Below are positions 29,852-51,376 of a DNA stretch of 64,000 bases, piece by piece. Position 1 is the stretch's first letter, and every line of letters starts with the position of its first letter. A model generated the notes under the pieces. The model was not told the origin of the DNA, searched no databases, and saw nothing but the letters and a program-made list of their open reading frames with translations. The position numbers and the translations under genes are program-made. The stretch is from Minisyncoccota bacterium (GTDB taxonomy: Bacteria; Patescibacteriota; Minisyncoccia; Phycocordibacterales; UBA918): NCBI GenBank assembly GCA_022841645.1, contig JALHRC010000003.1:6553-70552 (forward strand). The letters run 5' to 3'.

Positions 29852-30023
29852 CGGTGCAGGACTTGACCCAGAATCACGGATTTTTATTTCGTCTGCGACT
29901 CATAAAAATGCTCGTGTTCTTGGTCGGCCCCTCGCGTAGGTTGCTCCTTAGTGGTCGCAACCTACATGCGCCGGGGCTTCAAGTCCTGACACAACGCCCG
30001 CAGGGGCGTTGTTCACCACGCAC
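29852..30023 (-). mobile_element. tRNA-end-associated structured mini-element (outer, at tRNA-Val)
   Basis: Direct copy of the tRNA-Val 3' end, 111-nt core homologous to 45230-45339, inverted copy split by a 25-nt hairpin; mobility is inferred. Confidence 0.7.
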
Positions 30024-30030
30024 CGTCGTC

Positions 30031-30184
30031 GCTATGCTCCTCAAGTGGGGTCAAGTTTCTAATTCGCTACGCTTATAAGAACTTGCTCCCCTGGCTCGCC
30101 TGTTTTCTGCTGTAGGGACGGAGCAGAAAACATGGCTCCGCCTCGCACTCGAGCCCGCACGCAAAACTGTTTGCGTGCTATACC
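30031..30184 (-). mobile_element. tRNA-end-associated structured mini-element (inner, at tRNA-Val)
   Basis: Core homologous to 51047-51145; inverted copy of the tRNA 3' flank split by a 25-nt hairpin; mobility is inferred. Confidence 0.65.
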
Positions 30185-30223
30185 AAAAAACAATACCCAC
30201 TAGGGGGTATTGTTTTTTGGTAT
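30180..30223 (-). terminator. Terminator hairpin after tRNA-Val
   Basis: ATACCAAAAAACAATACCC...GGGTATTGTTTTTTGGTAT. Confidence 0.7.
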
Positions 30224-30230
30224 GCTCAAG

Positions 30231-43108: not shown

Positions 43109-44428
43109 ATGTTTCGTTCTTTTTTAAGCTCATGGTCACTTACTGCTGGATTGTCGGTGCTGAGTGTCCCCGTAGCGATGGTGGCCTGGTTTGTGGTGGT
43201 GCCACTCCTTCTAGGACAAGCCTTTACACCCACCACAGAGGCTCAGGGTGGGGTATGTTTTCCAAGAACGGCTGTTGCTCCTTATGCTGCTTGGTACGGC
43301 GGCTTCTACTGCGCGCCCGGCTACACACTTGTCTATCACTACTACCAGCCTGGTGGTCGGGAAAATAGCAACTGGTATGAGTGTGTCAGTGAGCAGTGTG
43401 CTAACCCAAAACCACCAGGGCCCGAGGTGGTCTGGACTGAATATTGTACTGGTGAAGGAAACACCAATCCGACCGTCGATTGGCAATGGTGGCGCTATTC
43501 AAATGAGGTGTCACCACGCTACGAGCGGGTGCGTGCCGGTGATGGTACCTGCACCCCGCCCCCTCCGGCCGAAATAGTGTGGACCCAATATTGTACTCGC
43601 GACCTGCAGTCTGACCCTACCCGCAATTGGCAGTGGTGGCGTGTTTCCAACGAAACACCAGCGCGTCATGAATTTGTGCGTGCTGGTGATGGCCTGTGCG
43701 CACCGCCGACGAGCGTTACCCTCAACCCACCCCGTCTCCTCTCAGCGACGTGTGAAGTCGACCCTGCTAACCCTACGACGGGAAGAGTAGAGCTGCGCTG
43801 GGAGGAGGTGTCGGGTGCGACGGGCTATGATCTGCGAGTACGTTGGGACGACGCCTCAACCCGCGACGCCCCAGTTGGTGAACGTTGTCCGAATGGTAAG
43901 TACAGTACGCAGGAGCGCTGGTGCTTTAACAATCAGCCAGGAAATGGTGGGTCATTCGTTCTTACCGGTCTTCCCCTCAGTACGGAAAAGCGCTACGTCT
44001 GGTGGCTACACTCACGCACTGGTAACAACACGAGCGTTCAGACCCATTCGACGTTGGACACCTCGTTTAAGTGCTTACCTGACGACACCATAAATCCAGA
44101 TGATAGTGACCCTCTTCCAGTAGCGCCAGTAGTCACTATGGGTGCTCGTTCGTGGCTGGTCCAAGCGGGTACACCGGCTCAACTCTATTGGAGTGTGGTG
44201 GCCACCTATCCTGTACGTTGTGAGCTGACGGGAGGTACCACACGCCGTACTTTCTCTTATCTAGCAGGTGGTGGCACGGTGTCTGTTGATGCCCCCTTTG
44301 TTACTGATCCGGTTGTTGGCACGACCCGTTTTGGTTTGGTGTGTCAGCCTGATCCGTCTATAGACGGCGTAGCTTCAGGTAATGCGGTAACGGTGATAGA
44401 TGTCACAGCAACGGTTGACCCGTTGTAG
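43109..44428 (+). CDS. Exported Cys/Trp-rich mosaic protein
   Basis: CAPGY module, two WTxYC..WQWWR..GDGxC repeats, CPNGKYSTQERWC module. Confidence 0.75.
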   Translation: MFRSFLSSWSLTAGLSVLSVPVAMVAWFVVVPLLLGQAFTPTTEAQGGVCFPRTAVAPYAAWYGGFYCAPGYTLVYHYYQPGGRENSNWYECVSEQCANPKPPGPEVVWTEYCTGEGNTNPTVDWQWWRYSNEVSPRYERVRAGDGTCTPPPPAEIVWTQYCTRDLQSDPTRNWQWWRVSNETPARHEFVRAGDGLCAPPTSVTLNPPRLLSATCEVDPANPTTGRVELRWEEVSGATGYDLRVRWDDASTRDAPVGERCPNGKYSTQERWCFNNQPGNGGSFVLTGLPLSTEKRYVWWLHSRTGNNTSVQTHSTLDTSFKCLPDDTINPDDSDPLPVAPVVTMGARSWLVQAGTPAQLYWSVVATYPVRCELTGGTTRRTFSYLAGGGTVSVDAPFVTDPVVGTTRFGLVCQPDPSIDGVASGNAVTVIDVTATVDPL

Positions 44429-44433
44429 CAACG

Positions 44434-45162
44434 TTAGATCTGCTTTGTTAGGTGGGCGATAACCGCGGCATGATCGCTGATCCCAAAGCGTAAGGTGACG
44501 TTCTTGGCACTATAGGGTCCCTTGGTAAATAGGTAGTCCACCATGAATGAGTCAAAGAGGAATTTTAGCTCTGGGTTTTTACCGTGGCGGTGGAGCGAGG
44601 CATCAAGGCTGCTTTTATACTGTGCTGGTATAGTGTCGGTGTAGTGCTCCGTGAGGTTTGTGTAGAGGGGATTGTGCTGGCGGGGAATGTTAAAGTCGCC
44701 ACAGAGGATGTGTGGTGGTAGGGGAGCTAGTGTCTCTAAAAGCGCTGCCATGTTCGCCTGCTGTTCGGGACTGGCGATCTCACCTCGTGGCGACCAGGTG
44801 AAATGCGTGGTAGCGATAGTGTAGTCGCCGACGCTCGCGATAATGACTGCCCGCGCCACGGTCCCTGGCACGTTGGTGACATCAATCGGAACAATCGCCT
44901 CGGTGGGGCGGTGGTAGTACTCACTCCGTGCAGAGGAAGGGAGCCGACTGGCAAGTAATATGCCTTCGGTAAAGGCCTCTTGACCACTCTGGCGAATGTC
45001 CATAGGAGCGAAGGTGGTCTGGTATCCAAGTTTACTAAGCGGCACTGCCAATTGCTCGGGGGCCTCCTGAAGGCAGAGAACGTCCGCCCTCTCGGTCTCT
45101 AGAAAGGGAAGTACTTTATCGAGGTGAGTGATGCCTTCAACATTGAGCGAGATGAGTTTCAT
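44434..45162 (-). CDS. Endonuclease/exonuclease/phosphatase family protein
   Basis: Motifs ISLNV, DVLCLQE, ILCGDFN, VDYLF, ISDH. Confidence 0.9.
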   Translation of the reverse strand: MKLISLNVEGITHLDKVLPFLETERADVLCLQEAPEQLAVPLSKLGYQTTFAPMDIRQSGQEAFTEGILLASRLPSSARSEYYHRPTEAIVPIDVTNVPGTVARAVIIASVGDYTIATTHFTWSPRGEIASPEQQANMAALLETLAPLPPHILCGDFNIPRQHNPLYTNLTEHYTDTIPAQYKSSLDASLHRHGKNPELKFLFDSFMVDYLFTKGPYSAKNVTLRFGISDHAAVIAHLTKQI

Positions 45163-45211
45163 TGGAGCACTGTAGCAAAAAAATACTGGCTAGCCAATTA
45201 TGGAAACGCAA

Positions 45212-45387
45212 GGAAGCGGAGAGATTTGACCCAGAATCGCGGCTCTTTTACTTCGCTACGCTTGTAAAAGTGACTCGCGTTCTCGGTCGACACCTCGCGT
45301 GTTTTACTCTTTGACGTCGCAAAACACAAGCTCCGGTGCTTCAAATCCCTACGTACCGTGCGCAGGCACGGTACTCCGCTTCCGCGA
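45212..45387 (-). mobile_element. tRNA-end-associated structured mini-element at tRNA-Ser
   Basis: 17/18 direct copy of the tRNA 3' end, 110-nt core, inverted copy split by a 25-nt hairpin; mobility is inferred. Confidence 0.72.
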
Positions 45388-45426
45388 ACAAAATATGCGT
45401 CCACAAGGGACGCTATTTTGTACTCG

Positions 45427-45513
45427 CGGAAGCGGAGGGATTTGAACCCTCGATAGAGTTTCCCCTATGCCGGTTTTCGAAACCGGTACCTTCAACCACT
45501 CAGCCACGCTTCC
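45427..45513 (-). tRNA. tRNA-Ser(CGA)
   Basis: GGAAGCG acceptor, CCGGT-TTCGAAA-ACCGG, long variable arm, GAGGG-TTCAAAT-CCCTC, G discriminator. Confidence 0.93.
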
Positions 45514-45562
45514 AGTGGGAACGGTGCTATACTAGCACCGTTATTCAGTAAGTTTCAAATGT

Positions 45563-50985: not shown

Positions 50986-51043
50986 GTCGAGTAAGTGGAA
51001 TAGGGGCGTTCATACCAGTGTCGCAAGCCAGCCTGGTTATGTG

Positions 51044-51335
51044 TGTGGTCACGAGTTACTAATTCGCTACGCTCATAAGTACTCTCGACCCCGGCTCGGC
51101 CGTTTTAGCTTTAGGAAAAAGCTGAAAACATGCCTGCGGCCGTCACCGCGACACGTCAGCGACATTAGTCGCTCTTGTGGTCACCAGTCACTAAGCGTAT
51201 TTGTTCACTACGTTCCAAATCCGCTAAGTGCTGTCGACCCCGCCTCGCGGTTTCCGCCGCTTTGACGGCGACGGAAACATCGCTGCGGCCGTCACACGAG
51301 CCGAAACTGAAAGCTTTCAGTTTCTAAAACGAAAC
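51044..51335 (-). mobile_element. Two tandem structured mini-elements behind tRNA-Glu
   Basis: Two related units GTGGTCAC...CGACCC...CTGCGGCCGTCAC; inverted tRNA-end copy split by a 25-nt hairpin (51301-51325); mobility is inferred. Confidence 0.68.
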
Positions 51336-51376
51336 AGCCTTCTTTGGATGAAGAAGGCGGTTTCGTTTTTGTCGTG

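Follow-up and report, generated by a model that had tools for sequence, protein, structure and literature searches.

A repeat unit behind tRNA genes of Patescibacteria, with a target-matched antisense arm split by a fixed-register hairpin, is a candidate mobile cassette

Behind the tRNA-Ser(CGA) gene of a Minisyncoccota bacterium, the tRNA's 3' end recurs twice, once as a direct copy and once as an inverted copy interrupted by a hairpin. Is this arrangement a substrate of DNA recombination, or does it act in the processing of the tRNA? The locus lies in a window of 64,000 nt, the whole stretch of DNA analyzed (contig JALHRC010000003.1), from an assembly of 1.12 Mb that is 97.9% complete. Positions 44400-45445 were read without any difference in contigs of four DNA runs from one study, which is possibly the source of the assembly.

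All parts of the locus are read on the minus strand, the sense strand of the tRNA. The intact tRNA-Ser(CGA) gene (45426..45513; ARAGORN and Rfam RF00005) is the host target and ends in its live tail, tRNA positions 57-74 (45426..45443). Next comes a 40-nt linker hairpin, H (45386..45425), which is terminator-like on both strands, has a weak T-tract, and stands ahead of the antisense arm; near-identical linkers are found at the orthologous loci L115 and L137. The proximal half of the arm (45376..45385) is the complement of tRNA positions 65-74, and the distal half (45340..45350) is the complement of positions 54-64, with an invariant GAA at its end. Between the halves lies a 25-nt insert (45351..45375), composed of an A, a 9-bp stem closing a 4-nt loop, and a terminal GT, and supported by covariation. 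The arm leads into a core of two hairpins: P1 (45290..45339), with a tandem GA/GA internal loop and a covarying base stem, and P2 (45228..45288), with extrahelical A bases, a cGNAg cap, and covariation in which the base columns were fixed by the search pattern. The last C of P2 is the right boundary of the unit. Beyond it, a second tail starts again from position 57 (45212..45227, positions 57-72 with one mismatch), and this distal direct copy is likely the displaced original 3' end of the tRNA. The left boundary appears to fall at TTC|AA in the T-loop; it was identical in the 52 units for which the general parser found a full downstream copy, and a C always preceded it. The repeat length is 216 nt. 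No ORF of at least 90 aa lies within the 216-bp unit, and Rfam at the gathering score returned five tRNA matches only in the whole window, with no known structured RNA family at the unit. On the other side of the gene, a perfect 10-bp inverted repeat (45520-45542) overlies the predicted -10 box of the tRNA-Ser promoter.

The sequence-only reading had already reported the repeats and the insert, and its description was reproduced apart from small corrections. The distal copy at 45212-45229 matches the tRNA at 45428-45445 in 17 of 18 positions, and the inverted copy (45340-45350 plus 45376-45387) is antisense to the tRNA 3' end at 23/23 positions once the 25 nt at 45351-45375 are deleted. The insert has the proposed 2+9+4+9+1 layout on the plus strand, with the loop GCAG. 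The window has a single occurrence of this split arm, and 100 shuffles have none. As also claimed, the insert behind tRNA-Val (29989-30013) agrees in length, loop, and register, and the two stems have 4 of 9 bases in common. The core had been placed at 45230-45339; its right edge stood, and its left edge was moved to give 45228-45339 (112 nt), because the last C is part of the closing stem of the core. Folding of the 314-nt minus strand, a check that this reading had proposed, gave z = -11.8 as RNA and -10.1 as DNA against shuffles. Either of the two three-way junctions that it had envisaged is predicted to form as DNA, at -84.6 kcal/mol for the arm with the tRNA and -74.8 kcal/mol for the arm with the distal copy. 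These predicted folds are mutually exclusive and about 10 kcal/mol apart: at -84.6 the arm lies on the live tail and the distal copy completes the acceptor stem, and at -74.8 the cloverleaf is intact and the arm lies on the distal copy.

Homologues would be expected to keep the 25-nt geometry if it mattered, as the same reading had pointed out. We assembled 35 distinct Patescibacteria units with the same core, three of them from the source genome, after leaving out three matches in non-CPR genomes and eight in metagenomes that lay inside ORFs and had no such layout, seven partial BLAST matches, exact duplicates, and five loci that the parser did not place (L047-L049, L066, and L071). The hairpin insert was present in 34 of the 35 units, and 29 of these inserts were exactly 25 nt long; the others measured 26 nt (three), 24 nt (one), and 27 nt (one). 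The first base was A in 34/34 and the terminal GT was kept in 29/34, with the loop CTGC in 17 and as many as 25 distinct stems. The insert sat between tRNA positions 64|65 in 26 units and 65|66 in the remaining eight, that is, at the junction of T-stem and acceptor stem or one base off it. All nine pairs of the insert stem had changes on both sides, and 94.8% of cells were paired. In the whole structure, 26 of 39 pairs had changed on both sides, and the covariation score was 0.487, compared with 0.132 for shuffled and at most 0.092 for slid alignments, where the P2 base columns were set by the search pattern and kinship among the sequences inflates the shuffle test.

Among sister cores the insert is optional. 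The general arm parser is loose, and 83 of its 103 arms passed a stricter filter; in these 83, which include other cores, the hairpin was present in 53 (25 nt long in 37) and absent in 30. Well-matched insert-free arms had a single extra A opposite 72|73 in 11 of 17 cases. The occurrence of either an insert or an extra A suggests that an extruded feature is held in fixed register while the paired bases vary. Taken together, comparison of the sequences shows a unit whose predicted structure is conserved and whose sequence is not.

The arm matches the tRNA behind which it stands. Its distal (T-loop) half was exact to the host tRNA in 24 of 26 units, spanning 13 isotypes, whereas in a control against other isotypes it was exact in 12 of 602 comparisons. 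The proximal half was exact in 16/26, and the distal direct copy was full-length and exact in only 7/26. At 30 positions where the upstream and downstream tails differ, the arm agreed with the upstream tail at 23 and with the downstream tail at six. Thus, the antisense arm tracks the live tRNA rather than the distal copy.

We then surveyed the family more widely. In the source genome, 13 of 50 ARAGORN tRNA calls carry an antisense arm, defined as an exact antisense match of at least 10 nt to the tRNA 3' end within 500 nt. Related units also stand behind a tmRNA-like tail and behind the stop codon of rpsI; in the latter unit (G000:C18:8380-9100) the arm is antisense to the last bases of the gene. 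One unit stands at tRNA-Ser and two or three stand in tandem at sister loci. Within the window, a sister stack of two units lies behind tRNA-Val(GAC) (29852..30229, minus strand), its distal unit having the same core and a 25-nt insert, and sister cores without intact arms lie behind tRNA-Glu(TTC) (51040..51375, minus strand). A strict core pattern found 22 loci in 185,579 species genomes, of which 19 were Patescibacteria loci with the full layout and three were chance matches, and 37 loci in metagenomes. Of 301 genomes of the order, 31 contained a strict sister-core pattern, and the reversed control gave 0. Two core patterns had no match in viral contigs; six matches of a third core pattern there were rejected as chance, as they lay inside phage ORFs with no tRNA or arm.

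Several other features of the source genome were noted during this survey. A tRNA-Asp(GTC) with a 217-nt anticodon-loop intron precedes a two-unit stack (G000:C7:43968-44259). A further structured motif stands directly upstream of truncated tmRNA and tRNA-Ser tails (G000:C26:8560-8760 and C30:1100-1230), and the same motif is found upstream of units in L004, L102, and L103. One tRNA called as Ser has the unusual anticodon ACT (G000:C7:22721-22808), and a short contig with an rRNA-spacer tRNA-Ile/Ala pair (G000:C38) looks foreign in this genome.

The units differ in position and number among relatives. The 25 tRNA-Ser(CGA) loci of the genus, sorted by eye, comprise 14 with a full unit, two with relics, and nine with none, and loci that share one downstream gene carry different cores (again by eye). 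The cores of Leu(CAG), Val(GAC), and His fall in one cluster with the Ser core (97/97), whose identity to the tRNA-Ser(CGA) core of another genome is only 70%. In the source genome, tRNA-Leu and tRNA-Asp have copies of a 70-nt sister core with a 1-nt difference, and the two arms are wholly different. Several Phe and Val(TAC) cores form clades faithful to one tRNA, indicating that movement may be rare. A 185-nt unit with a tail and arm of tRNA-Ser(TGA) type lies inside the stack of another tRNA-Ser and has a copy 1 nt apart on a second contig, which indicates that the moving piece consists of tail, linker, arm, and core. At L115, a different unit is placed, as judged by eye, between the tRNA and a linker-plus-arm resembling that of the tRNA-Ser locus, which suggests newest-first stacking. 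In four loci with sister units (L090, L098, L099, and L108), the distal tail opens with GAGA instead of tRNA positions 57-61, a sequence hint that strand exchange may also fall at 61|62.

Identical tandem units were found at L022, L036, and L056, and identical units flank a 2.8-kb cargo behind tRNA-Gln(TTG) (L202:1-3250; G000:C3). By eye, the cargo encodes kinase-like, LD-carboxypeptidase-like, and small ORFs, and the region continues into a nest of short tandem repeats. In the contigs of the four runs of one study, the depth of the cargo equaled that of its flanks, and no unit-skipping (excision) joint was found in these contigs, which drop rare forms. These observations show that the unit is present behind many tRNAs, forms tandem stacks, is exchanged at orthologous sites, and encloses cargo genes.

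To which nucleic acid does the conserved structure belong? Among 306 cells of the insert stem, 284 are Watson-Crick, five G-T, and seven A-C. P1 has the tandem GA/GA in 26/34 units, and P2 has the cGNAg cap in 22/34 on the sense strand and in none on the antisense strand. Both cGNAg triloops and tandem GA pairs have particularly high stability when formed in DNA. The sense strand was computed to be the better folder in 32 of 34 units as DNA and in 29 of 34 as RNA; since the preference is also seen as RNA, strand bias alone is no proof of DNA. Of the two roles suggested by the sequence-only reading, a DNA recombination substrate fits better and tRNA processing fits less well, because the stems are near-purely Watson-Crick, P2 has a cGNAg cap, and the unit is gained and lost among relatives.

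We then looked for a mobilizing gene. No recombinase, transposase, or reverse transcriptase family was found among 85 ORFs adjoining core-B units, and no mobility family among 70 of the 119 ORFs adjoining sister units. No integron integrase exceeded the cut-off in the genome, the best match to TIGR02249 scoring 44.7 bits against a cut-off of 265. The genome encodes one tyrosine recombinase, which is not an integron integrase, three serine-recombinase matches, two Y1 genes with repeats of their own, four GIY-YIG matches, and one DGR-like reverse transcriptase. Neither of the two Y1 genes is flanked on both sides by unit ends, and the same is true of 30 GIY-YIG loci and the 30 best Y1 loci in the genus. 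In relatives, two GIY-YIG loci adjacent to tRNAs have no unit. The sole candidate-enzyme gene adjoining a unit is a small GIY-YIG gene (C18), next to the rpsI unit, with its own GNA-hairpin inverted repeats.

The DGR-like locus (L200:3089-5575; G000:C11) contains a 364-aa reverse transcriptase, a 112-aa accessory-like ORF, and a 110-nt repeat pair of 87% identity that overlaps a 214-aa target ORF. Elsewhere in the genome, the antisense strand of tRNA-Glu(CTC) encodes the C-terminus of a large serine recombinase (G000:C8:33331-34897), and a second, split serine recombinase lies 3.4 kb beyond it. In the excerpted account of Islander (2014), tRNA genes were not among the known targets of serine recombinases (PMC4383910).

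We propose, with a probability of about one half, that the unit is a non-autonomous cassette, helped in trans, whose folded single-stranded DNA undergoes recombination at TTC|RA and whose arm is later corrected to the live gene. The tRNA-sense strand would fold so that the arm pairs with the tRNA tail and a short duplex replica of the target arises, and the hairpin would be extruded at the junction of T-stem and acceptor stem in the arm duplex, much like the extrahelical features of integron attC sites. A predicted trans-acting enzyme would cut and join at the T-loop (TTC|RA), and single-strand exchange followed by replication would place the unit immediately after C56, so that the tRNA stays functional and a tail is displaced. 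After landing at a tRNA with a similar T-arm, the arm would probably be corrected to the live gene by hairpin-templated repair, acting on either side of the extruded insert. Changes in the reverse direction would be purged, we propose, because they would break the tRNA. The circle, the enzyme, in vivo folding, and arm rewriting are steps that we infer, and arm rewriting is the weakest of them. One consideration counts against the cassette: insertion of a circle at a different tRNA, if simple, would yield a chimeric acceptor stem. A bolder version, which we hold to be possible and clearly less probable, is a DNA-guided, self-retargeting insertion, in which the split antisense arm of a protein-less cassette is a programmable guide directed at the tRNA's T-arm and acceptor strand and is rewritten from each new target. 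In this version, the 25-nt hairpin or the bulged A would hold the register for one universal enzyme, of the host or acting in trans.

Other explanations were weighed against the cassette. Read-through RNA might let the arm capture the T-arm and acceptor strand in the pre-tRNA, making the unit an RNA switch or processing signal in which the distal copy stands in or is a decoy and the trailer might be a small RNA. Two exclusive predicted folds about 10 kcal/mol apart, an arm that tracks the live tRNA, and a terminator with a weak T-tract would suit such a role, as would the transcription of the tRNA-linked repeats (TLRs) of E. coli rRNA operons, which bind Hfq and CsrA according to the excerpt of PMC8144298. 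We nevertheless regard it as unlikely, given that G-U pairs and one-sided changes are almost absent, that the loops are cGNAg, that a terminator-like hairpin stands ahead of the arm, that the presence, number, and core type of units vary freely at orthologous tRNAs, and that units are also found away from any tRNA and inside stacks. It is similarly improbable that the host keeps the units as a recombination platform that captures and shuffles cargo behind tRNA promoters, or as a decoy that soaks up integrases directed to tRNA ends: 11 of the 25 loci are empty or decayed and most units have no cargo, even though cargo is bracketed by identical units and the structure is strongly conserved across an order (31 of 301 genomes, control 0) with genomes of about 1 Mb. 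A platform or decoy would in any case be compatible with the cassette explanation, as the two are not exclusive.

Less probable again is a retro-element, transcribed with the tRNA and copied by a reverse transcriptase from a nick in the T-loop, with snap-back synthesis making the antisense arm. The 3' end of the unit is fixed, the tail and sometimes the linker are duplicated over a variable length (L055, L101, and L102), and the inverted arm is target-specific, all as such copying would predict; however, the sole RVT_1 match of the genome lies in the DGR-like locus, the loops are of DNA type, and snap-back copying does not account for a hairpin that belongs to the element and sits midway in an arm derived from the target. 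The explanation that we consider least likely, and that is largely refuted, takes the unit as a neutral scar in which the att repeat left by a vanished integrative island is combined with a terminator palindrome enlarged through template switching. A tRNA with a displaced 3' fragment is indeed the classical signature of an island, the source genome has large serine recombinase genes at tRNA ends, and the excerpted text of PMC4383910 has both T-loop and T/acceptor junction among the known subsites of crossover. Against this stand compensatory changes in 26 of 39 pairs, a constant length and register of the insert, a unit size that does not vary, and a core shared by 13 isotypes, none of which is expected of decaying scars. 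A fold-back model using the host terminator was also weakened, because the linker is element-specific, measuring 45-51 nt in 20 of 30 insert-free arms.

If the cassette is placed among known systems, it appears to behave most like an integron cassette, yet it does not belong to that class by core motif or integrase. As in the excerpted description of attC sites (PMC5027507), hairpins are kept in structure and variable in sequence, have extrahelical features, and favor one strand; our computations found an imperfect hairpin, strand asymmetry, and extrahelical features in the unit. Tandem arrays, cargo between sites, and the hint of newest-unit-first order (L115 against the tRNA-Ser locus and L137) are further parallels with the integrons of that excerpt. 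By contrast, the right boundary lacks RYYYAAC/GTTRRRY and ends in GACC (23), GGTC (13), GTTC (11), or other sequences (5) in 52 units, there is no integron integrase in the genome, and the unit targets the tRNA T-loop with target-specific arms. In addition, attC is a single hairpin in that description (PMC5027507), whereas the core of the unit is a two-hairpin junction.

Islands that target tRNA genes, as portrayed in the excerpt of PMC4383910, share the intact tRNA with a displaced 3' fragment in the same orientation and the boundary in the T-loop. They are at least 2 kb long (2-200 kb) and contain their integrase (PMC4383910), whereas the unit has 216 bp and no integrase; compared with islands so described, the unit adds an inverted copy of the target and shares a single core across many isotypes.

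IS200/IS605, REP/REPIN-RAYT, and Xer-hijacking (CTX-type) elements act as folded single-stranded DNA with sub-terminal hairpins, and their enzyme can act in trans. The unit differs in that no Y1 gene or GTAG-type guide was seen with units, its target is not dif, and its target duplication is long.

By layout, the closest described relatives appear to be the TLRs of E. coli, the likeness seen being one of layout and motifs. The excerpted account describes tandem units of about 100-180 nt behind tRNA and 5S genes, with 18-19 nt from the 3' end of the gene closing each unit, and with function unknown; for repeats of tRNA tails behind tRNA genes, it names no known function since 1978, and it reports three E. 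coli TLRs that act as small RNAs (PMC8144298). The tRNA-Ser unit, which repeats 17 of 18 nt of the tRNA end 216 nt downstream, fits the positional definition in that excerpt, and one unit at tRNA-Ser and two or three at sister loci fall within its range of one to five tandem copies. Two E. coli regions, tyrV and lys, were read by eye; like the Patescibacteria units, their repeats have GA-flanked GNA hairpins and a stretch nearly antisense to the tail of the tRNA, and no 25-nt insert was seen in them. Probes of 12 nt and 10 nt found this short, imperfect stretch in one of six trailers at two mismatches. The exact core pattern matched no enterobacterial genome among the 185,579 species genomes. 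As excerpted, the TLR account makes no mention of an antisense arm or of mobility (PMC8144298), and the listings and opening lines of abstracts that we surveyed gave no account of the Patescibacteria family or of a split arm, though TLR alignments in supplements may show the arm.

We conclude that the unit is real and conserved, and that by its sequence layout it probably belongs to a known but functionally orphan kind, the TLR-like repeats. What the present work adds is the analysis of the fixed-register insert. The Patescibacteria copies are numerous and diverse enough to reveal rules of tRNA-tail repeats, namely the C56|57 boundary, the target-matched arm, the fixed-register hairpin, two covarying core hairpins, stacking, swapping, and cargo, and they turn an old curiosity into testable substrates. 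If the cassette reading is true, such units would be a hidden source of gene flux in minimal genomes, and an enzyme that reads a rewritable DNA guide would represent a new route to site-specific insertion. If the self-retargeting version holds, the family would be an integron-like system in which every tRNA gene is an attachment site, and it would explain the TLRs of E. coli.
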